This document shows positions 2,940-21,056 of a DNA stretch of 64,000 nt, piece by piece (the first letter of the stretch is position 1; each line of letters opens with the position of its first letter). Below the pieces are notes generated by a model. It had not been told where the DNA came from and ran no database searches. It worked only from the letters and a program-made list of their open reading frames with translations. The position numbers were made by a program, and so were the translations under genes. The DNA comes from Escherichia phage vB_Eco_F31, in sequence record OP870147.1; one strand, 5' to 3'.

Positions 2940-5256
<2,317 letters not shown>

Positions 5257-5283
5257 AAATAAAGCAAATTAAGAGGAATTAAA

Positions 5284-7263
5284 ATGGCACTTCTCTCTCC
5301 GGGCGTTGAGCTCAAAGAAACTACCGTACAGAGTACTGTAGTTAATAACTCCACTGGTACTGCTGCCCTGGCTGGAAAATTCCAATGGGGACCTGCATTC
5401 CAGATTAAACAAATCACTGATGAAGTTGCATTAGTTGATATGTTTGGTACTCCTAATACGGATACAGCAGATTATTTCATGTCTGCTATGAACTTCCTTC
5501 AATATGGTAATGACCTTCGTGTTGTACGCGCAGTTGATCGTGATACTGCTAAGAACTCATCTCCTGTAGCAGGCAATATTGAATTCACAATCTCTGCTGC
5601 TGGTAGTAACTATGCGGTTGGTGATAAAATTATCGTTAAGTATTTGACCGAAACTGTTGAAGCAGATGGTTATGTCACTTCAGTTGATGTCGATGGTAAA
5701 ATTCGTAACATTTATATCCCAACCGGTAAAATTATTGCTCGTGCAAAAGAAATTAATGAATATCCGGCATTGGGTTCTAACTGGACCGCCGAAGTTGCCA
5801 GTTCTTCTGGACTTTCTGGCGTTATTACAATTGGTTCTATCGTAACCGATTCGGGTATTCTGTTAACTGAAGTTGAAACTTCTGAAGAAGCTATTACTTC
5901 TCTAACTTTCCAAGAATCTATTAAAAAATATGGTGTCCCAGGCGTAGTTGCTCTTTATCCTGGTGAACTTGGCGACCAGCTCGAAATTGAAATCGTATCT
6001 AAAGCAGACTATGACAAAGGTGCTTCAGCCCAGTTAAAAATTTATCCTGATGGTGGTACTCGTGCATCTACTGCTAAAGCAATCTTTGGGTATGGTCCAC
6101 AAACTGATGACCAATATGCAATTATCGTTCGTCGTAACGATGCTGTAGTCCAGAGTGTAGTTCTTTCTACTAAACGTGGTGAACGCGATATTTATGGTAG
6201 TAATATCTTTATTGATGATTTCTTTGCTAAAGGCGCAAGCAATTATATTTTCGCTACTGCACAAGGTTGGCCAAAAGGTTTCTCTGGCGTAATCAAACTG
6301 GGTGGTGGCTTATCATCTAATGAAACGGTTGACGCTGGTGATTTAATGGAAGCTTGGGATTTGTTTGCTGACCGCGAATCTGTTAATGCGCAGTTGTTTA
6401 TTGCCGGTTCTTGTGCAGGTGAATCTTTAGAAGTTGCTTCTACAGTTCAGAAACATGTTGTAGCAATTGGTGATTCTCGTCAAGATTGCTTGGTTCTTTG
6501 CTCACCGCCACGTGCAACTATAGTCGGTATTCCTGTTAATCGTGCAGTTGATAATCTGGTTGATTGGCGTACTGCATCAGGAACTTACACTGATAATAAC
6601 TTTAATGTAAGTTCTACTTACGCGGCTATTGACGGTAACTATAAATATCAATATGACAAATATAATGATGTGAATCGTTGGGTTCCATTAGCTGCTGATA
6701 TTGCTGGACTTTGTGCTCGTACAGACAATATTTCTCAGCCTTGGATGTCTCCTGCCGGTTATAACCGTGGACAAATTCTTAACGTTATTAAGCTTGCAAT
6801 TGAAACTCGCCAAGCGCAGCGTGATCGTTTGTATCAGGAAGCTATTAACCCTGTCACTGGTACCGGTGGTGATGGGTATGTTCTGTACGGTGATAAAACT
6901 GCCACTTCTGTTCCTTCACCATTTGACCGTATTAACGTTCGTCGTTTGTTCAATATGGTTAAAACGAACATTGGTTCAGCATCTAAATATCGCCTGTTTG
7001 AATTGAACAACGCATTTACCCGTTCTTCTTTCCGTACAGAGACTTCTCAATATCTACAGGGTATTAAAGCTCTTGGTGGTGTATATAACTTTAAAGTTGT
7101 TTGTGATACTACCAATAACACCCCAGCAGTTATCGACCGTAATGAATTTGTAGCTACTTTCTACTTACAACCTGCCCGCTCGATAAATTATATTACATTG
7201 AACTTTGTAGCAACAGCAACTGGTGCCGATTTCGACGAACTAATTGGTGCTGTAGGTGGTTAA
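5284..7263 (+). CDS. 18: tail sheath protein gp18
   Basis: 659 aa, same length as T4 gp18; follows gene 17, precedes gene 19. Confidence 0.95.
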   Translation: MALLSPGVELKETTVQSTVVNNSTGTAALAGKFQWGPAFQIKQITDEVALVDMFGTPNTDTADYFMSAMNFLQYGNDLRVVRAVDRDTAKNSSPVAGNIEFTISAAGSNYAVGDKIIVKYLTETVEADGYVTSVDVDGKIRNIYIPTGKIIARAKEINEYPALGSNWTAEVASSSGLSGVITIGSIVTDSGILLTEVETSEEAITSLTFQESIKKYGVPGVVALYPGELGDQLEIEIVSKADYDKGASAQLKIYPDGGTRASTAKAIFGYGPQTDDQYAIIVRRNDAVVQSVVLSTKRGERDIYGSNIFIDDFFAKGASNYIFATAQGWPKGFSGVIKLGGGLSSNETVDAGDLMEAWDLFADRESVNAQLFIAGSCAGESLEVASTVQKHVVAIGDSRQDCLVLCSPPRATIVGIPVNRAVDNLVDWRTASGTYTDNNFNVSSTYAAIDGNYKYQYDKYNDVNRWVPLAADIAGLCARTDNISQPWMSPAGYNRGQILNVIKLAIETRQAQRDRLYQEAINPVTGTGGDGYVLYGDKTATSVPSPFDRINVRRLFNMVKTNIGSASKYRLFELNNAFTRSSFRTETSQYLQGIKALGGVYNFKVVCDTTNNTPAVIDRNEFVATFYLQPARSINYITLNFVATATGADFDELIGAVGG

Positions 7264-7275
7264 TAAGACGCCTGA

Positions 7276-7295
7276 TGGGCTATTTCGGTAGCCCA
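7276..7295 (+). terminator. hairpin TGGGCTA-uuucgg-TAGCCCA after gene 18
   Basis: 7-bp perfect stem 13 nt after gene 18 stop; abuts late promoter motif. Confidence 0.4.
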
Positions 7296-7303
7296 TATAA
7301 ATA
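7296..7303 (+). promoter_or_regulatory. T4-type late promoter (TATAAATA) upstream of gene 19
   Basis: Exact TATAAATA right after post-gene-18 hairpin, 73 nt upstream of gene 19 ATG. Confidence 0.4.
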
Positions 7304-7375
7304 TACTATATCGTTTAAAAATTAATTCTATGGGCATCCGGTTAATCCTAGGCCCATATTACTACAGAGGCTAAT

Positions 7376-7867
7376 ATGTTTGTAGATGACGTAACTCGTG
7401 CCTTCGAATCTGGTGATTTCGCTCGCCCTAACCTGTTCGAAGTAGAAATCTCTTATCTTGGGCAAAACTTTAGCTTCCAGTGTCGTGCTACGGCTCTTCC
7501 TGCTGCGATCGTTGAAAAGGTTCCTGTTTCTTATATGAACCGTAAAATTAACGTGGCTGGTGATCGTACATTCGATGATTGGACTATTACAGTAATGAAC
7601 GATGATGCTCATAGCATTCGTCAGAAATTTGTTGATTGGCAAGGTATTGCAGCAGGACAAGGTAATGAAATTACCGGTGGTAAACCTGCTGAATATAAAA
7701 AGTCTGCTATCGTTCGTCAATTTGCTCGTGATGCTAAAACGATCACTAAAGAAGTTGAAATTGTCGGCTTGTGGCCTACTAACGTTGGCGAAGTATCTCT
7801 TGACTGGGACAGCAATAACGAGATTGAAACGTTCGAAGTAACTCTTGCTCTTGATTGGTGGGAATAA
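7376..7867 (+). CDS. 19: tail tube protein gp19
   Basis: 163 aa, same length as T4 gp19; AGAGG RBS before ATG at 7376. Confidence 0.9.
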   Translation: MFVDDVTRAFESGDFARPNLFEVEISYLGQNFSFQCRATALPAAIVEKVPVSYMNRKINVAGDRTFDDWTITVMNDDAHSIRQKFVDWQGIAAGQGNEITGGKPAEYKKSAIVRQFARDAKTITKEVEIVGLWPTNVGEVSLDWDSNNEIETFEVTLALDWWE

Positions 7868-7870
7868 TCT

Positions 7871-7892
7871 GGTTGGGGAGAAATCCCCAACC
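7871..7892 (+). terminator. hairpin GGTTGGGGA-GAAA-TCCCCAACC after gene 19
   Basis: 9-bp perfect stem with GNRA tetraloop 4 nt after gene 19 stop. Confidence 0.45.
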
Positions 7893-7915
7893 TCCCGTGA
7901 TGACGGAGAAGTCCA

Positions 7916-7923
7916 TATAAATA
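7916..7923 (+). promoter_or_regulatory. T4-type late promoter (TATAAATA) for gene 20
   Basis: Exact TATAAATA 29 nt upstream of gene 20 ATG. Confidence 0.5.
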
Positions 7924-7951
7924 TAACTATAATTCCCATTCGGAGAATACA

Positions 7952-9523
7952 ATGAAATTTAATATCTTAAGTTTGTTTGCTCCATGGGCAAAAATGGACG
8001 AACGTGATTACAAAGACCAAGAAAAAGAAAATTTAGAATCTATCACCACACCAAAATTAGACGATGGTGCTAAAGAATACGAAGTATCTGAAAATGAAGC
8101 ACAGCAAACATATAATGCTATGTTTCAGAGAATGTTCGGTAGTCAAGAACCAGGGCTCAAATCAACCCGTGAATTAATCGATACGTATCGAAATTTGATG
8201 ACGAACTATGAAGTGGATAATGCAGTCTCTGAAATAGTTTCTGATGCTATCGTATATGAAGATGATACAGAAGTCGTTTCTATAAATTTAGACAACACAA
8301 AATTTAGTCCAAATATAAAATCAATGATGTTGGATGAATTTAACGAAGTGTTGAATCATTTATCTTTCCAACGTAAAGGTTCAGACCATTTTAGACGTTG
8401 GTATGTAGATTCTCGAATTTTCTTCCATAAAATTATTGACCCTAAACGCCCTAAAGAAGGTATTAAAGAGCTTCGTCGTTTAGACCCACGTCAAGTTCAA
8501 TATGTCCGTGAAGTTATTACAACCACTGAAGCCGGTGTTAAAATAGTCAAGGGTTATAAAGAATATTTCATTTATGACACATCACACGAATCTTATGCTT
8601 GTGATGGCCGCATATATGAAGCTGGCACAAAAATAAAAATCCCTAAAGCCGCGATTGTTTATGCCCATTCTGGTTTAGTTGATTGTTGTGGTAAAAATAT
8701 CATCGGTTATTTGCATCGGGCTATTAAGCCAGCGAACCAATTAAAACTTCTTGAAGATGCCGTCGTAATTTATCGCATTACTCGTGCTCCCGATCGTCGT
8801 GTATGGTACGTTGATACAGGTAATATGCCTTCAAGAAAAGCAGCAGAACATATGCAGCATGTTATGAATACGATGAAAAACCGTATTGCATATGATGCTA
8901 CTACAGGCAAGATTAAAAACCAGCAGCATATTATGTCGATGACCGAAGATTATTGGTTACAACGACGTGATGGTAAAGCAGTAACAGAAGTTGACACATT
9001 ACCAGGTGCAGATAATACTGGAAATATGGAAGATGTACGTTGGTTCCGTAATGCGCTTTATATGGCTTTACGTATTCCTATTACCCGTATTCCAAGTGAC
9101 CAAGGTGGTATACAGTTTGATGCTGGTACTTCTATTACACGAGATGAATTGTCGTTTGGTAAATTTATTCGTGAGCTGCAACATAAATTTGAAGAGATAT
9201 TCCTAGACCCGCTTAAAACTAATTTAATTCTTAAAGGAATTATTACAGAAGATGAGTGGAATGATGAAATAAATAATATTAAGATAAAATTTCATCGGGA
9301 TAGTTATTTCTCGGAATTAAAGGATGCTGAGATTCTGGAGCGTCGCATTAATATGCTTCAGATGGCCGAACCATTTATTGGTAAATATATTTCTCACAGA
9401 ACAGCTATGAAAGATATTCTTCAGATGTCTGATGAGGAAATTGAACAAGAGGCTAAGCAAATTGAAGAAGAGTCGAAAGAGGCTCGTTTCCAAGACCCCG
9501 ACCAAGAACAAGAGGATTTTTAA
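7952..9523 (+). CDS. 20: portal vertex protein gp20
   Basis: 523 aa; synteny 19-20-67-68-21 and size match T4 gp20. Confidence 0.9.
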
Positions 9524-9759
9524 TGGACGATTTAATTCAAGCTATTAAATCAAACGACCTCGTTGCTACTCGAAAGTTTTTTGAAAGTGCAATGGCAGAA
9601 AAAGCGGTTCGTTTGATTGAAGCACGCAAAGCAGAAATCGCTTCTCAATTTTTGATTGAAGGCGAAGAACCTGAAGAAGAAAAGAAAGCTAAAGCTTCGG
9701 AAGACGACGCTGATGAAGGCGATGACGACGAAGACGAAGATGATGAGGACGATGAATAA
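9523..9759 (+). CDS. 67: prohead core protein gp67
   Basis: 78 aa with strongly acidic D/E-rich C-terminus; position between 20 and 68 as in T4. Confidence 0.7.
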
Positions 9760-10184
9760 TGTATCTTATCCCTGAATCTTATGAATTGGTACTCGAAAAT
9801 GTCGAAGCACTTATTCCTGAAGCACAGGGCCGAATCGATGCATTGTCTTCTGCTCTCGATATTGACGATATAAATACTATTATCGAGAACATGCTTGAAA
9901 CTGAAACGGATTTAGCTGTTGCAATGGCTTCCATTATTAATGAAGAACAGTTAAATGAGTTTATCGTTAAACATGTTTCTTCTCGTGGTGAAGTCACCCG
10001 CACTAAAGACCGTAAAACTCGTGAACGTAACGCGTTCCAAACCACTGGTCTTTCTAAAGCAAAACGTAGACAAATCGCTCGTAAGGTCGTTAAAGCTAAA
10101 AAAGCTAACCCTTCAGGCCAAGTTAAAGGCTTGCGTAAGCGTAAAAAAGCTCTTAAACGTCGTAAAGCATTAGGATTAAGCTAA
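9759..10184 (+). CDS. 68: prohead core protein gp68
   Basis: 141 aa, basic C-terminus; position between 67 and 21 as in T4. Confidence 0.7.
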
Positions 10185-10825
10185 TGAATAAACCCGAGTT
10201 ACTTATTGAAACTTGGGGTCAACCCGGTGAGATTATTGATGGCGTTCCAATGTTGGAATCTCATGATGGAAAAGATTCTGGCTTAAAACCAGGGCTTTAT
10301 ATAGAAGGTATTTTTCTTCAGGCAGAGGTTGTTAACCGAAATAAACGTTTATATCCTAAACGCGTTTTGGAAAAAGCAGTAAGTGACTATATTAAAGAAC
10401 AAGTCGCAACCAAACAAGCCCTTGGAGAATTAAACCATCCACCTCGTGCAAATGTTGACCCTATGCAAGCCGCTATCATTATTGAAGATATGTGGTGGAA
10501 AGGAAACGATGTATATGGACGTGCTAGAATTATTGAAGGCGACCATGGTCCCGGCGATAAATTAGCTGCTAATATACGAGCTGGTTGGATTCCAGGTGTT
10601 TCCTCTCGTGGTCTTGGTTCTTTAACCGACACCAATAAAGGGTACCGTATCGTGAACGAAGGATTTAAATTAACCGTCGGCGTAGATGCCGTATGGGGAC
10701 CTTCTGCTCCAGATGCTTGGGTTACTCCTAAACAAATATCAGAATCAGAAAATTCGGTGGAAACCACCAAAAACAGTGCTGATGAAGCATTTAAAGCTCT
10801 CGCAGAGAGTTTAAAAGCATTATAA
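10184..10825 (+). CDS. 21: prohead core scaffold protease gp21
   Basis: 213 aa; synteny and size match T4 gp21. Confidence 0.85.
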   Translation: MNKPELLIETWGQPGEIIDGVPMLESHDGKDSGLKPGLYIEGIFLQAEVVNRNKRLYPKRVLEKAVSDYIKEQVATKQALGELNHPPRANVDPMQAAIIIEDMWWKGNDVYGRARIIEGDHGPGDKLAANIRAGWIPGVSSRGLGSLTDTNKGYRIVNEGFKLTVGVDAVWGPSAPDAWVTPKQISESENSVETTKNSADEAFKALAESLKAL

Positions 10826-10828
10826 ATA
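10821..10828 (+). promoter_or_regulatory. T4-type late promoter (TATAAATA) for gene 22
   Basis: Exact TATAAATA 31 nt upstream of gene 22 ATG, overlapping gene 21 stop. Confidence 0.5.
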
Positions 10829-10858
10829 ATAATGTAATCTAAACCACAGGACACTAAA

Positions 10859-11671
10859 ATGATCAAAGAACAACTTTTGAAAGAAGCTCAGAACATCGAG
10901 ACTTCAGTTGCTCTTAATAGTGTTTTCGAATCAGTAGAACTGTCTCCGGACGTTAAAGCTAATTTCAGCACTGTATTCGAAGCCACCGTTAAGCAGGAAG
11001 CAGTCAAACTGGCTGAATCTCATATCAAAGCCATCGCCGAAAAGGCCGAAGAAGAAGTTGAAAAGGCCAAAGAAGATGCTGAAGAGAAAGCTGATAAAAA
11101 ATTGGCTGAACAAGCTTCTAAATTCCTAGACCATCTTGCAAAAGAATGGCTCGCAGAAAACCAAATCGCAGTTGATAAAGGCATTAAAGCTGATTTGTTC
11201 GAATCCATGCTTGGTGGTCTGAAAGAACTGTTTGTTGAACATAACGTTGTTGTTCCAGAAGAATCTGTAGATGTTGTAGCAGAAATGGAAGAAGAGCTGG
11301 CCGAACATAAAGAAGAAACCGCTCGTTTGTTCGAAGAAGTTACCAAACGTGATGCATATATCAATTACGTTCAGCGTGAAACCGCTATTAATGAAAGCGT
11401 AAAAGACCTGACTGAATCTCAGAAAGAAAAAGTTATTGGCCTGGTTGAAGGTATGGATTATTCTGACGCATTTGGTACTAAGTTAACTGCTATTGTAGAA
11501 ATGGTTAAAGGTTCTACTAAAGAAGAAGCCGCTATTACCGAAAGTATAAATACAGTTGACAATGACGCTGCCGGTCTTAATTTTGTTGCCGAAGCAGTTG
11601 ACACTACCACAACTCAGGTAGAACAGAATTCTAATGTAAGTTTATATGCGAAAGTCGCATCTCGTTTCTAA
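10859..11671 (+). CDS. 22: prohead scaffolding core protein gp22
   Basis: 270 aa, E/K-rich helical protein; directly upstream of major capsid gene as in T4. Confidence 0.85.
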   Translation: MIKEQLLKEAQNIETSVALNSVFESVELSPDVKANFSTVFEATVKQEAVKLAESHIKAIAEKAEEEVEKAKEDAEEKADKKLAEQASKFLDHLAKEWLAENQIAVDKGIKADLFESMLGGLKELFVEHNVVVPEESVDVVAEMEEELAEHKEETARLFEEVTKRDAYINYVQRETAINESVKDLTESQKEKVIGLVEGMDYSDAFGTKLTAIVEMVKGSTKEEAAITESINTVDNDAAGLNFVAEAVDTTTTQVEQNSNVSLYAKVASRF

Positions 11672-11688
11672 TTTAAAGGTTAACACAA

Positions 11689-13257
11689 ATGACTACTATC
11701 AAAACTAAAGCTCAGCTCGTAGACAAATGGAAAGAACTGCTGGAAGGTGAAGGCCTGCCGGAAATCGCTAATAGCAAGCAGGCTATTATCGCTAAAATCT
11801 TCGAAAACCAGGAAAAAGATTTCGAAGTATCCCCTGAATATAAAGACGAGAAAATCGCTCAGGCATTTGGTTCTTTCTTGACCGAAGCTGAAATTGGTGG
11901 TGACCATGGTTATAATGCTCAGAACATCGCAGCAGGTCAAACCTCTGGTGCAGTAACCCAAATTGGGCCGGCAGTTATGGGTATGGTTCGTCGTGCTATT
12001 CCTAATCTGATCGCTTTTGATATTTGTGGTGTTCAGCCTATGAACAGCCCTACCGGTCAGGTATTTGCTCTCCGTGCAGTATATGGTAAAGACCCTATCG
12101 CTGCTGGCGCTAAAGAAGCTTTCCATCCGATGTATGCCCCAGACGCGATGTTCTCTGGTCAGGGTGCTGCTAAGAAATTCCCAGCTCTGGCTGCTGACAC
12201 TACTACTGTTGTAGGTGATATCTATACTCACTTCTTCCAAGAAACTGGTACTGTATATCTGCAAGCTTCTGCTGTCGTAACACTTGATTCTAGTGCAACT
12301 GATGCAGCTAAATTAGATGCAGAAGTTAAGAAACAAATGGAAGCTGGTGCACTGGTAGAAATCGCTGAAGGTATGGCTACTTCTATCGCTGAACTCCAGG
12401 AAGGTTTCAACGGTTCTACCGATAACCCATGGAATGAAATGGGCTTCCGTATCGATAAACAAGTTATCGAAGCTAAATCTCGCCAGCTGAAAGCTGCTTA
12501 CTCTATCGAATTAGCACAAGACCTCCGTGCAGTACACGGTATGGATGCTGATGCTGAACTGAGCGGTATTCTGGCTACAGAAATTATGCTAGAAATCAAC
12601 CGTGAAGTTGTTGATTGGATTAACTACTCAGCACAGGTTGGTAAATCCGGTATGACCCTGACTCCGGGTTCTAAAGCTGGTGTATTTGACTTCCAGGACC
12701 CGATTGATATCCGTGGTGCTCGTTGGGCCGGTGAAAGCTTTAAATCTCTGTTGTTCCAGATTGATAAAGAAGCAGTTGAAATTGCTCGTCAAACCGGTCG
12801 TGGTGAAGGTAACTTCATTATCGCTTCCCGTAACGTAGTTAACGTACTGGCTTCAGTTGATACTGGTATTTCTTACGCTGCACAGGGTCTGGCTTCTGGT
12901 TTTAATACCGACACTACTAAGTCTGTATTTGCCGGTGTACTTGGTGGTAAATACCGCGTATACATCGACCAGTATGCTAAACAGGATTACTTCACCGTTG
13001 GTTACAAAGGCGCTAACGAAATGGATGCAGGTATTTACTATGCTCCTTACGTTGCACTTACCCCGCTGCGTGGTTCCGATCCTAAGAACTTCCAGCCGGT
13101 AATGGGCTTTAAAACTCGTTACGGTATCGGTGTTAACCCGTTTGCTGAAAGTTCCCTGCAGGCTCCAGGTGCTCGCATCCAGTCCGGTATGCCATCTATC
13201 CTGAACAGCCTTGGTAAGAACGCTTACTTCCGCCGTGTATATGTAAAAGGCATCTAA
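11689..13257 (+). CDS. 23: major capsid protein gp23
   Basis: 522 aa; sequence very close to T4 gp23 as recalled (MTTIKTK...EGEGLPEIANSKQAIIAKIFENQEKDF ... GKNAYFRRVYVKGI). Confidence 0.97.
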   Translation: MTTIKTKAQLVDKWKELLEGEGLPEIANSKQAIIAKIFENQEKDFEVSPEYKDEKIAQAFGSFLTEAEIGGDHGYNAQNIAAGQTSGAVTQIGPAVMGMVRRAIPNLIAFDICGVQPMNSPTGQVFALRAVYGKDPIAAGAKEAFHPMYAPDAMFSGQGAAKKFPALAADTTTVVGDIYTHFFQETGTVYLQASAVVTLDSSATDAAKLDAEVKKQMEAGALVEIAEGMATSIAELQEGFNGSTDNPWNEMGFRIDKQVIEAKSRQLKAAYSIELAQDLRAVHGMDADAELSGILATEIMLEINREVVDWINYSAQVGKSGMTLTPGSKAGVFDFQDPIDIRGARWAGESFKSLLFQIDKEAVEIARQTGRGEGNFIIASRNVVNVLASVDTGISYAAQGLASGFNTDTTKSVFAGVLGGKYRVYIDQYAKQDYFTVGYKGANEMDAGIYYAPYVALTPLRGSDPKNFQPVMGFKTRYGIGVNPFAESSLQAPGARIQSGMPSILNSLGKNAYFRRVYVKGI

Positions 13258-13281
13258 TCTTAATTGATTAAATCTTATTTT

Positions 13282-13305
13282 GGGAGACTTCGGTCTCCCA
13301 TTTTT
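13282..13305 (+). terminator. rho-independent terminator GGGAGAC-UUCG-GUCUCCC + U-tract after gene 23
   Basis: 7-bp GC-rich stem, UUCG loop, followed by ATTTTT. Confidence 0.6.
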
Positions 13306-13309
13306 GGTT

Positions 13310-13579
13310 TTATTTCTGTGCAATTTCGATGTAAGTTTTCAAAATATTTTGCCAATTAGGCATACCTTCTTGGACATATGCTGGAGAACCGTCTTTGTTT
13401 TTGAATGATGCAAGTTTATCAGTGGCCCAATAACCTTTAGCTCGAGCTTCAGAATCAACTTTCATCCATACTTTGTTGAAGGCATTACCATTAACTTTTG
13501 CACCATATTTTTCTACTAACTTAACTGCTTCAGCTTCCAGAACTTTTAAAGTATCTCTTAAGAAACGTGCTTTAGTCAT
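13310..13579 (-). CDS. hypothetical protein (89 aa) at the locus where T4 carries segD
   Basis: ATG at 13579 preceded by AGGAG and an early-promoter-like motif; no GIY-YIG/HNH motifs seen. Confidence 0.6.
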   Translation of the reverse strand: MTKARFLRDTLKVLEAEAVKLVEKYGAKVNGNAFNKVWMKVDSEARAKGYWATDKLASFKNKDGSPAYVQEGMPNWQNILKTYIEIAQK

Positions 13580-13609
13580 TTTGTTTACTCCTCTGTAGTT
13601 GATAAGTCT

Positions 13610-13639
13610 ATAGTATCACATACCAAATACGTTGTAAAC
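13610..13639 (-). promoter_or_regulatory. early-promoter-like motif GTTTAC-N18-TACTAT
   Basis: Minus strand GTTTAC ... TGATACTATAGAC, then AGGAG and ATG of the 89-aa ORF. Confidence 0.45.
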
Positions 13640-13645
13640 AATCTT

Positions 13646-13653
13646 TATAAATA
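13646..13653 (+). promoter_or_regulatory. T4-type late promoter (TATAAATA) for gene 24
   Basis: Exact TATAAATA 28 nt upstream of gene 24 ATG. Confidence 0.5.
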
Positions 13654-16554: not shown

Positions 16555-16635
16555 AATCAATCCCGTATTATTTGGTTTGTGCCATTATATACATCAATCT
16601 CAAGATGTGTTTTGTATGCTTTAAAAACGAAGAAA

Positions 16636-16649
16636 GGGGCCGAAGCCCC
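16636..16649 (-). terminator. terminator hairpin GGGGC-UUCG-GCCCC (minus strand) after hoc
   Basis: GC stem with UUCG loop 7 nt after hoc stop, followed on minus strand by U-rich tract. Confidence 0.5.
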
Positions 16650-16655
16650 TTACGA

Positions 16656-18074
16656 TTATGGATATGTATAGATGATACCAGTTTCCAAAGCAGTTTTATG
16701 GATGATGTATCCATTACGTGATTCTTGAACATCAACTTCTGGATAATCTTTCATCATCTTCTGAAGAGTGTAACGATGCAGGTAGTATTTACTATCTGGA
16801 TCTTCAGTTTTCCAATCTTTACCTTCTTCAGTCATTTTTTGGATTTCATCCATAACCCACCATCCGCACCAGATGTAAGCTGAAGTACGATGTGGAAGAG
16901 GATGAACATAAGGTAATTCACCTTCTGGTTCTGGAGCAACTTTATCGGTTACCTGAACTTGACCTTCTGCTGTAATAGTTTTGCTATCGTAATCAGTTGC
17001 AGTAATAGTTGCAGTAACTTCAATAGTTTGACTTCCAATAGATGAGGTATCAACGGTATATACATTAGTTGACCCTTCTACAGGAGAAGAATCTTTCTTC
17101 CATGAATACTCAATTTGCGCTTCTTCTGGAGCATCAGTGACATTAGCGGTAAATGTAGCCGAAGCATCTTGCTGAACGTTAATAGAAGGAGGAGTCAATG
17201 TAACCCGTGGATTCATTGTCTTCTTATTAACCGTTAATGATACTTCATTCGAAGTAACTTCCTTTGCATCATAATCTGTCGCGGTTACTTGGGCTACACA
17301 CTTAATTCTTTTTACTCCACTTGTAGTCGGAGTATAGCTAAATGTAGAGTTAGTTTCTCCACCAACCTGTGAATCATCTACATACCACTGATACGTAGCA
17401 GACGCTCCAACCGGTTGAGAAGCTAAGGCAGCAGTAAATTGAACTGGGGTTCCAATTACTCCGGCTGAAGGACTATTGGGAGTTACTGCCAACGTAGTTG
17501 TCTGTGTCTTTTTATTAACAGTCAGTGACACTTCATTAGAAGTAACGCTTAGTGCGTCATAATCTGTTGCGGTTACTTGGGCTACACATTTAATTTTTTT
17601 AACTCCGCTTGTGGTAGGAGTGTAATTGAATGTAGCAGAAGTTGCTTCGCCAACAGGAGAATCATCTACATACCATTGATAAGTAGCGTTTGCGCCTGAT
17701 GGCTGCGAAGCTAAAGCGGCGGTAAATTCAATAGCTGTTCCTATTACTCCAGCGTCAGGGCTATTAGGAGTTACAGCTAAGGTAGTCGTTTGTGTCTTGT
17801 TTTGAACTGTGATAGTTGTAGTAGCTTCTGCTGTTTCAGCTTCAGCGTCTGGAACTGTATTTGTTGCAACTACTTTAATAGTCTTTTGACCGGCAGGTCC
17901 TTTTAGTACATAACTAAAAGTTGCTTCAGCTCCATCTTGTGGAACATCATCCACAGACCAAGCATATGTAATAGGTCCATCTCCAGTTTGACCACTGGGT
18001 GTAGCAGTAAACTGCTTAGTCTCATCTATAACTCCAGTAGGTGTTTTAGGAGTTATATCAACTGTAAAAGCCAT
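16656..18074 (-). CDS. hoc: highly immunogenic outer capsid protein Hoc, with four Ig-like domains
   Basis: 472 aa; position upstream of inh as in T4; repeated about 97-aa Ig-like units with conserved YxW...C...Y(D) pattern; two units nearly identical. Confidence 0.85.
   Translation of the reverse strand: MAFTVDITPKTPTGVIDETKQFTATPSGQTGDGPITYAWSVDDVPQDGAEATFSYVLKGPAGQKTIKVVATNTVPDAEAETAEATTTITVQNKTQTTTLAVTPNSPDAGVIGTAIEFTAALASQPSGANATYQWYVDDSPVGEATSATFNYTPTTSGVKKIKCVAQVTATDYDALSVTSNEVSLTVNKKTQTTTLAVTPNSPSAGVIGTPVQFTAALASQPVGASATYQWYVDDSQVGGETNSTFSYTPTTSGVKRIKCVAQVTATDYDAKEVTSNEVSLTVNKKTMNPRVTLTPPSINVQQDASATFTANVTDAPEEAQIEYSWKKDSSPVEGSTNVYTVDTSSIGSQTIEVTATITATDYDSKTITAEGQVQVTDKVAPEPEGELPYVHPLPHRTSAYIWCGWWVMDEIQKMTEEGKDWKTEDPDSKYYLHRYTLQKMMKDYPEVDVQESRNGYIIHKTALETGIIYTYP
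17220..17801 (-). repeat. tandem duplication (2 x ~291 bp) inside hoc encoding two near-identical Ig-like domains
   Basis: Protein units KTQTTTLAVTPNSP.AGVIGT...ATYQWYVDDS.VG...SGVK.IKCVAQVTATDYDA..VTSNEVSLTVNKK repeated back to back; nucleotide copies clearly similar on reading. Confidence 0.8.
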
Positions 18075-18083
18075 AACTTATCC

Positions 18084-18752
18084 TTATTTTAATGTTATGA
18101 AAGAAGAATTACGAGTTTCACGAATTAGAACTGATCCATCGCGATTAATATAATAAATTAAGCTAAATAATGTTTGGTGAGCAGAAGCATGCACAAAACT
18201 AGTTGGGCGAGATTTCCAATCTGGGGTTTCGGCTATCCATTGATAAATCCACCAAGGAACAGTAACATATCCTGGGCCTTTGCCTAATTTAATGAGTGTA
18301 GGACTAAAATTTTCAGGCAGAACAAATTTTACTTCTTTATTTACCTCTGGTTCAGGCTCTTTTTCGGATTCAACAATCTGAGTAATTGCTTCTTCGAATT
18401 TATCATGGTCGAATTCTTTTTCTTGTTCGACAACTTCTAATACTTCAACTTGTTCTGTTGGAGAATCAAACAACAGAATAGCTTCTTCTTTAACTTCTTC
18501 GTTGGTGAAATTAACACCGTCCACATCATCTGCGGCAGTAATTAAATCGGTGATAGATAATCCATCAGTTTCAGGTAATGGTTCATCAGCCAGTGCGTTA
18601 AGAGCTTCTTCGATATCAATAACAATATTATCGAATGATTTTGTTTTCTTAACACTAATGCCAAATTGTTCCGCATATTCAAACAGTTTAGCTTTGGCTT
18701 CCTTTTTATCAGAAAGAGCACGTAACTCTTCAATATAGTCTTTATCGATCAT
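18084..18752 (-). CDS. inh: inhibitor of prohead protease Inh
   Basis: 222 aa; position between hoc and uvsW and size match T4 inh. Confidence 0.7.
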   Translation of the reverse strand: MIDKDYIEELRALSDKKEAKAKLFEYAEQFGISVKKTKSFDNIVIDIEEALNALADEPLPETDGLSITDLITAADDVDGVNFTNEEVKEEAILLFDSPTEQVEVLEVVEQEKEFDHDKFEEAITQIVESEKEPEPEVNKEVKFVLPENFSPTLIKLGKGPGYVTVPWWIYQWIAETPDWKSRPTSFVHASAHQTLFSLIYYINRDGSVLIRETRNSSFITLK

Positions 18753-18765
18753 GATATTTCCTCAT

Positions 18766-18773
18766 TATAAATA
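18766..18773 (+). promoter_or_regulatory. T4-type late promoter (TATAAATA) for uvsW
   Basis: Exact TATAAATA 30 nt upstream of uvsW ATG. Confidence 0.5.
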
Positions 18774-18802
18774 TAACTATATTTATTACATGGTAATTTG
18801 AC

Positions 18803-20799: not shown

Positions 20800-20831
20800 G
20801 ATTGCCTCCTAAGTTGAAATTACATATCTAT

Positions 20832-21056
20832 TTATACAACTCTCATATGCATATCAATGCCCATATCTTTAGAATAAAAATATTCATCAAGATATCCGGC
20901 AAATTTTCCTTTAATATAAAGGACGTCTTCACCACACGGGTGGTCTGCCAGGATACGAATATCCTGACGACGTAGACGATACTTTTCCATTAAGAATTTA
21001 ATTTCAGTTTCAAATTCTTCGTCATTATTAAAGGCATCTTCAATTGAATAACGCAT
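20832..21056 (-). CDS. hypothetical protein (74 aa), downstream of uvsY
   Basis: ATG at 21056 overlaps uvsY stop; same strand operon position as T4 uvsY.-1. Confidence 0.5.
   Translation of the reverse strand: MRYSIEDAFNNDEEFETEIKFLMEKYRLRRQDIRILADHPCGEDVLYIKGKFAGYLDEYFYSKDMGIDMHMRVV

Follow-up and report, generated by a model that had tools for sequence, protein, structure and literature searches.

The hoc gene of Escherichia phage vB_Eco_F31 is very probably an old, common and already described T4-type allele that carries Ig-like domain 2 twice, as tandem 96-aa paralogues A and then B. The window we analysed is a 64,000-nt stretch of this phage (sequence record OP870147.1). The original prediction described an in-frame tandem duplication of one Ig domain in this gene and called it recent. 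The duplication was confirmed by a repeat search, by TRF and by the in-frame units; its recent date was not borne out.

The ORF list gave hoc as a minus-strand frame of 1419 nt, coding for 472 aa and a stop codon. The match to T4 Hoc (PDB 5vf3_Z, 376 aa) had an E value of 2.9e-222 in phmmer, in agreement with the predicted excess of length over the T4 protein. The alignment consisted of two blocks, with residues 1–111 on T4 1–111 and residues 189–472 on T4 93–376. The 96 additional residues of F31 Hoc were thus located after domain 1, between T4 residues ~92 and 93. The gene inh (18084–18752) lies immediately upstream on the same strand, and 24.3, 24.2, rnlB and gene 24 come after hoc. This neighbourhood (inh, hoc, 24.3, 24.2, rnlB) has the order annotated in T4 and RB69. 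The features of the locus are collected in Table 1. A consensus scan showed a terminator-like hairpin right after the hoc stop codon, and the G2469 and Kha5h records carry an annotated terminator at the same place. The exact late promoter sequence TATAAATA was absent directly upstream of hoc or inh on the minus strand, the nearest minus-strand match being at 20829–20836.

Table 1. Features of the F31 hoc locus, in window coordinates.
Feature	Position	Strand	Evidence
hoc CDS, four-Ig allele	16656..18074	-	ORF list, phmmer, gene order
Ig-like domain 1 (aa 1–92)	17799..18074	-	aligns to T4 Hoc 1–92; AF2 beta-sandwich, pLDDT ~86–93
Unit A, Ig-like domain 2a (aa 93–188), extra relative to T4	17511..17798	-	repeat search, TRF, clade of first units
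Unit B, Ig-like domain 2b (aa 189–284), counterpart of T4 domain 2	17223..17510	-	alignment, identity
Fourth Ig-like domain (aa 285–378), counterpart of T4 domain 3	16941..17222	-	aligns to T4 189–282
C-terminal capsid-binding domain (aa 379–472)	16659..16940	-	near-identity to T4 Hoc 283–376, including YIWCGWWVMDEIQK
Terminator-like hairpin followed by a T-run	16634..16651	-	consensus scan

F31 Hoc is composed of four Ig-like domains and a capsid-binding C-terminal domain. The AlphaFold2 model, calculated from an input alignment of 47 sequences, yielded four successive beta-sandwich domains (approximately aa 1–91, 93–187, 189–283 and 285–376), with pLDDT values mostly between 85 and 94. The C-terminal domain was modelled as helical with low confidence (pLDDT 34–65). 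In the phmmer alignment, the C-terminal 94 residues were almost the same as those of T4 Hoc. The best PDB matches of the model in Foldseek were fragments of Sidekick, Dscam and ICAM-5 with four Ig domains each, and the crystal structure of RB49 Hoc (3shs) was also among the matches. The Pfam PKD profile scored 36.6 bits against a cutoff of 23.5, and Ig_2, Ig_3 and I-set scored just under their cutoffs. The equivalent of T4 D246 is D342, in the fourth Ig domain. The original prediction of four Ig domains instead of three was thereby supported by the model, by the alignment to T4 and by the alignment of T4 domain 2 to unit B.

The repeat search found two direct copies of 288 nt each (17217–17504 and 17505–17792), 77% identical. 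TRF reported 17217–17798 with a period of 288, 2.0 copies, 78% matches and a score of 705. The in-frame units, each of 288 nt and 96 aa, together span 17223–17798, which is at most 3 nt off the position originally proposed (17220–17801); the proposed unit size of ~97 aa and ~291 bp was slightly too large. At the protein level, 81 of the 96 residues were identical (84%). The nucleotide sequences agreed at 221 of 288 positions (76.7%), leaving 67 differences. Nearly half of the third codon positions differed (45/96, 47%), and the longest exact run common to A and B was 20 nt. The units had been described as nearly identical, and these values do not support that wording. As a chance control, we scored the best 288-nt self-match in 200 codon shuffles of hoc. 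The shuffled genes reached 117.8 ± 2.6 bases with a maximum of 126, against 221 in the real gene, and a chance repeat was ruled out on this basis. A and B were 84% identical to each other but just 36–40% identical to the first or the last Ig domain; this was the comparison that the original prediction had proposed for its own refutation, and the refuting result was not obtained. Only domain 2 is duplicated; the extra domain is its paralogue, in tandem and in frame. The NEVSLT strand is kept in both units (aa 180–185 and aa 276–281).

The divergence of the two units at silent sites was large. NG86 gave a dS of 1.25 and a dN of 0.116 between A and B, and YN00 a still higher dS; owing to the mosaicism of the units, a simple tree understates recombination and dating by dS is approximate. 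Between the hoc genes of F31 and T4, dS was 0.26–0.34 in domain 1, in unit B, and in domain 3 with the C-terminal region, so that the value for A and B is ~4 times that between the two genes. For the flanking genes of the same two phages, dS amounted to 1.34 (inh), 2.2 (rnlB) and 0.70 (gp24), and it was saturated for uvsW. The silent-site divergence of A and B is about that of orthologous genes from two phage genera, Mosigvirus and Tequatrovirus. The dN/dS ratio between A and B was ~0.09, indicating that both units have been kept under purifying selection.

To place the units, we built a neighbour-joining tree with 300 bootstraps from 288-nt units cut from 20 hoc genes. Ten of these genes carried more than one unit: those of F31, moskry, teqskov, RB30, PP01, HP3, UGKSEcP1 and YUEEL01, one IMG/VR contig and one ENA contig. 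All ten first units of these two- and three-unit alleles formed one clade in 300/300 bootstraps. Most second units grouped with the single unit of T4, of RB3 and of the three-Ig Mosigvirus alleles. In the five-Ig alleles, units two and three were of further types, as was the second unit of HP3. Units inside one allele were 73–79% identical at the nucleotide level in all ten multi-unit alleles, and the nearest relative of any unit was always in another phage, never in its own allele. Unit A of F31 had the first unit of moskry as its nearest neighbour (94.4%), against 76.7% for its own unit B, and it was 86–94% identical to the first units of other alleles, which belong to other phages and another genus. 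A search of 5.8 billion proteins agreed with this grouping for the first units. It supplied 31 other two-unit homologues; in 30 of them, the first unit was nearer to F31 A than to B, and the second units were usually nearer to F31 B. Positional orthology, with first units related to first units and second units to second or single units, was thus found both in the tree and in the protein comparison.

RB69 Hoc (471 aa, of the type Mosigvirus) also has four Ig domains and a C-terminal domain and is collinear with F31 Hoc over the full length, with ~59% aa identity in the Ig part. RB69 Ig2 shared 53–54% identity with each of A and B, and it was sister to the whole A/B clade. RB69 Ig3 was 40% identical to RB69 Ig2 and fell outside the A/B clade, and the fourth Ig domain of RB69 is therefore not a product of the duplication seen in F31. 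We considered an A/B duplication older than the genus split and shared with RB69, and rejected it on account of the equal distance of RB69 Ig2 from A and B and the position of Ig3 outside the clade. The sister position of RB69 Ig2, together with the monophyly of the first units, places the duplication inside the T4-type hoc lineage, after the RB69-type split. The duplication predates the diversification of the sampled T4-type hoc alleles.

The allele is widespread. In a protein census, we took the top 120 clusters matching F31 Hoc. Their main length classes were 376 aa (79 clusters), 472 aa (29) and 568/570 aa (8), corresponding, in this order, to one, two or three units of domain 2. Two-unit proteins made up 30 of the 120 clusters (the 29 of 472 aa and one of 468 aa), with 444 member sequences. 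A megablast search of hoc against 50,697 phage records returned 662 matching records, from which we drew an evenly spaced sample of 60. An unbroken 1419-nt hoc was present in ~22 of the 60 (including PP01, HP3, RB30, fPS-90 and JK23), a 1131-nt hoc in ~29 (including T4, T6, RB3, RB14 and PNJ-6), and a 1707-nt hoc in two. The 3-, 4- and 5-Ig hoc alleles coexist in Tequatrovirus and in Mosigvirus.

The arrangement is also on record. GenBank entry AY101183.1, the hoc gene of RB30, lists five regions, among them Ig regions at 312–599 and 600–887, and a repeat_region at 367–944, whose note credits an intragenic repeat with the additional immunoglobulin-like domain. Judging from the accession number, this gene was sequenced around 2002. 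The moskry record likewise has a repeat_region annotated inside hoc. The four-Ig arrangement is old, common and already annotated in GenBank, and it is not new. Our literature searches found no paper specific to the RB30 repeat or to four-Ig T4-type Hoc, functional data included; the sources on the matter were the GenBank annotation and general statements of variable Ig number. Hoc homologues are described as having a conserved C-terminal anchor and from one to ten Ig domains (PMC10385173, Fokine et al. 2023), and their variable Ig number is also stated in PMC13435897. Among individual proteins, PNJ-9 Hoc has two Ig domains and was studied functionally (PMC11853027), and PMBT63 Hoc has an extra Ig (PMC13435897). 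These proteins share with F31 Hoc the anchor and a variable string of Ig domains, but they are more distant or differ in other domains.

The hoc genes of RB30 (AY101183.1), PP01, HP3, teqskov and moskry are built like that of F31. Each is a 1419-nt CDS with the order Ig1, Ig2a, Ig2b, Ig3 and C-terminal domain, and each has the twofold 288-nt intragenic repeat at the same place, with a first unit of clade A. The second unit belongs to clade B in most 472-aa alleles, as in F31, and to a third type in HP3. Overall nucleotide identity to F31 hoc was 90–98.6%, and the differences were allelic only. The F31 allele sits in a Mosigvirus backbone, in place of a Tequatrovirus one. T4 Hoc (376 aa; 5vf3, 8t1x) has one domain-2 unit and three Ig domains, to which F31 adds the 96-aa unit of A type. 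T4 domain 2 and F31 unit B were 91.3% identical in nucleotides and 94.8% in amino acids.

Three accounts of the origin of the repeat were weighed against an old duplication within the T4-type lineage. A recent in-frame tandem duplication in the F31 lineage would have produced young copies prone to quick gain or loss. The units are indeed adjacent, in frame and exactly 288 nt long, and they resemble each other far more than they resemble the other Ig domains. Copies of recent origin are expected to be near-identical at synonymous sites and to be each other's closest relatives. Here, the nucleotide identity is 76.7%, 45 of 96 third positions differ, dS is 1.25, and the units group by position, not by genome. 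Unit A has closer relatives (86–94%) in first place in the alleles of other phages and of another genus, grouping with them in every bootstrap replicate, and the same architecture is found in about one third of the sampled records and in RB30. We rejected the recent duplication on the strength of the dS value, the third-position differences and the positional orthology, and consider it highly improbable. Even less credible is an assembly artefact, with a repeat that was put together wrongly or expanded by mistake. Tandem repeats are well known for causing such errors, but the 67 differences among 288 positions allow unambiguous read placement, the reading frame is intact, and the 1419-nt gene occurs in independent genomes from many laboratories.

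An unequal crossover between diverged A-type and B-type three-Ig alleles in a mixed infection deserves more weight, although we regard it as rather unlikely. The divergence of A and B would then be allelic and would not give the age of the tandem arrangement. Single-unit alleles with an A-type central motif (43 clusters) and with a B-type one (25 clusters) are consistent with such an event, as is the A-type centre of the Kha5h single unit. T4-like phages recombine freely, and hoc cassettes appear to be exchanged between genera. The A-type single units could equally be deletion products with a late crossover, and the two accounts, crossover and duplication followed by divergence, predict nearly identical present-day data. 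However, the A-then-B order is common to alleles whose A units differ by a dS of 0.42–0.55 and whose B units differ by 0.31–0.37. An order shared by alleles this diverged makes the tandem arrangement old either way. Duplication within the T4-type lineage, followed by divergence of the copies, is the reading retained below.

Comparison of the flanks suggested how the allele came to its present backbone. F31 belongs to Mosigvirus, and its closest genome is moskry (98.6% over 22 kb). Against the Tequatrovirus teqskov, identity in 150-nt windows was 93–99% across hoc, from ~18124 to 16625, and 52–88% in the flanks. The opposite pattern was found against RB69. Here, the flanking genes were 98% (inh and rnlB) and 95% (gp24) identical, as were the last 276 nt of hoc (16656–16931, the C-terminal domain; 98.6%), whereas the Ig-coding part was only ~66% identical or unalignable. 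When the depositors of JS09 compared hoc alone, the best match was RB32 and not RB69. Judged from these identities, the Ig-coding part of F31 hoc appears to be of T4 type within a Mosigvirus backbone, and it looks like a module exchanged between genera. One junction of this cassette would be near the point where the last Ig domain ends and the C-terminal domain begins.

The number of units has also changed among close relatives. AV110, FL18, APCEc01, JS09 and G2469 were 98.2–98.3% identical to F31 over 22 kb, and their hoc is exactly 288 nt shorter. Only four protein sites, at unit positions 48–55, were consistently diagnostic of A or B across alleles. Chimera mapping on the protein was therefore uninformative, and we painted the single units of the three-Ig relatives at the 67 nucleotide sites where A and B differ. 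In the three-Ig Mosigvirus relatives, the single unit began with A states and continued with B states to its end. The switch occurred at unit nt 12–17 in AV116, at 24–32 in JS09, G2469 and NicPhage, and at 39–42 in AV110. The B-like part was 96–98% identical to F31 unit B. The most parsimonious explanation is that unequal crossovers towards the 5' end of the units removed one 288-nt period more than once, as the order A and then B was in place before these alleles separated. The alternative is that a three-Ig allele replaced the longer one; the preference for loss was reached by parsimony and is not a proof. Other units were mosaic as well. The single unit of Kha5h is a B-A-B mosaic, that of T4 is A-like along unit nt 242–260, and unit A of moskry shows B states at nine sites. 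Between the hoc genes of F31 and moskry there were 20 differences, of which 16 were in unit A, clustered at 17580–17729. The original prediction had also named the repeat as a substrate for further copy-number change. This held over evolutionary time, as seen from the 3-, 4- and 5-Ig alleles and the relatives with an A head and a B remainder. Frequent change within a stock is not expected; the repeat, 77% identical and without an exact run above 20 nt, is likely to be stable within a phage stock.

The history that we propose begins with unequal recombination in the T4-type hoc lineage, which would have made the duplication after the RB69-type split and before the sampled alleles diversified. 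Both copies of domain 2 would then have been maintained by purifying selection. In both Tequatrovirus and Mosigvirus, the resulting four-Ig allele appears to segregate beside 3- and 5-Ig alleles, and to travel between genomes by homologous recombination within the Ig-coding cassette. In F31, this cassette would have landed on a Mosigvirus backbone and been joined to the conserved C-terminal anchor.

T4 Hoc forms a 180 Å fibre in 155 copies, with the Ig domains extending outward from the capsid (PMC10385173). By analogy with T4 and from the near-identity of the domain, the C-terminal domain of F31 Hoc would bind at the centre of the gp23* hexamer, one monomer to each. The four Ig-like domains may project as an acidic fibre about one domain longer than that of T4. 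Dividing 180 Å over four domains puts this difference at an estimated ~45 Å. The predicted pI is 4.51 for F31 Hoc and 4.74 for T4 Hoc, both acidic. In PNJ-9 Hoc, residues S183, L184 and T185 of domain 2, which are the S, L and T of the NEVSLT strand, reportedly bind MUC2 (PMC11853027). The F31 fibre would probably show two domain-2 surfaces, with two NEVSLT strands. For display and adhesion, the predicted longer fibre and the doubled surface are the relevant properties. For annotation, F31 hoc should be treated as the common four-Ig allele of the RB30/PP01 type, and not as a new or unstable duplication.

We tentatively suggest, as a possibility that we would not yet favour, that the copy number of domain 2 (one, two or three, giving 3-, 4- and 5-Ig alleles) is a long-lived selected polymorphism on an Ig "display cassette" which Tequatrovirus and Mosigvirus exchange over a near-invariant C-terminal anchor. 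If so, the 73–79% identity within alleles would mark the survivors: in such highly recombinogenic phages, only tandem copies diverged enough to escape removal by recombination would persist. Balancing or niche-specific selection would then act on fibre length or on the doubled mucin-binding surface. The points of modest interest in this locus are the cassette-like exchange of Ig domains between genera and the near-isogenic Mosigvirus genomes (98% nt) with natural 3-, 4- and 5-Ig alleles, which offer material for testing fibre length against mucus adherence.

Hoc has gained and lost Ig domains repeatedly. An IMG/VR scan for hoc alleles gave 21 loci, mostly from distant lineages, which served for the domain tree and not for the allele census. 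In one of these lineages (L007 and L008; 472 and 471 aa), the extra domain copies the last Ig domain (59–64% identical) and not domain 2 as in F31. Its relatives have three Ig domains in L009–L014, with two in L013.

Compared with the hoc gene of a Tequatrovirus phage that also encodes four Ig domains (teqskov), the window was 93–99% identical over 16625–18124, a segment comprising hoc and its edges, while identity in the flanks was 52–88%. For RB69, a Mosigvirus, the flanks and the C-terminal domain of hoc were 95–98.6% identical to the window, and the Ig part of the gene either aligned at an identity of ~66% or yielded no alignment. Judged by these identity profiles, the Ig-coding portion of hoc behaves as a cassette swapped between genera. 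The junction is listed in the table together with the compared alleles.

The hoc gene of the closest genome (moskry) differed from that of the window at 20 nucleotides. Outside unit A, the first of the two tandem copies of Ig-like domain 2, the genes were almost identical; 16 of the 20 differences were clustered within this unit, at 17580–17729. This clustering suggests a small patch of recombination or conversion.

Exchange junction and hoc alleles compared with the window
Feature	Position or locus	Details
Exchange junction in hoc	near window 16931	close to the boundary of the last Ig and C-terminal domains
Three-Ig hoc alleles	L024–L029	AV110, NicPhage, G2469, AV116, JS09, APCEc01
Five-Ig hoc, 1707 nt, 568 aa	L031, L032, L041	UGKSEcP1, an ENA contig, YUEEL01
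RB69 hoc	L042 9613–11028	Hoc 471 aa

The three-Ig alleles belong to genomes that are 98% identical to the window. At the sites where units A and B differ, the single unit in most of these alleles has an A-like head and is B-like in the remainder. The switch from A to B occurs at three or more different points (unit nt 12–17, 24–32, and 39–42), a pattern consistent with the repeated loss of one 288-nt period. The five-Ig alleles contain three domain-2 units, which are 73–79% identical to each other at the nucleotide level. The first is A-type, and the second and third are of further unit types.

RB69 Hoc has four Ig domains, as does the window Hoc, but its extra domain is a different and much older one. 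Among the Hoc loci taken from IMG/VR (L007, L008, and L013), the extra Ig of another lineage was copied from the last Ig domain, and the Hoc of one relative contains just two such domains. Across the sequences compared, gain and loss of Ig domains is recurrent in Hoc. In the T2 (PV648363) and T6 (NC_054907) records, hoc is annotated in two or three separate CDS fragments and would therefore be frameshifted or interrupted there.

The whole window contains 18 copies of the T4 late-promoter core TATAAATA, as compared with 7.1 ± 2.6 expected. Most of these lie on the plus strand of the head-gene region (5249–13653); for neither inh nor hoc did the window scan find an exact minus-strand TATAAATA immediately upstream of the gene. 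The spacing between inh and uvsW is only ~50 nt (18753–18802). In T4, the homing-endonuclease gene segE lies between these genes, whereas the window, RB69, and JS09 lack segE at this position.
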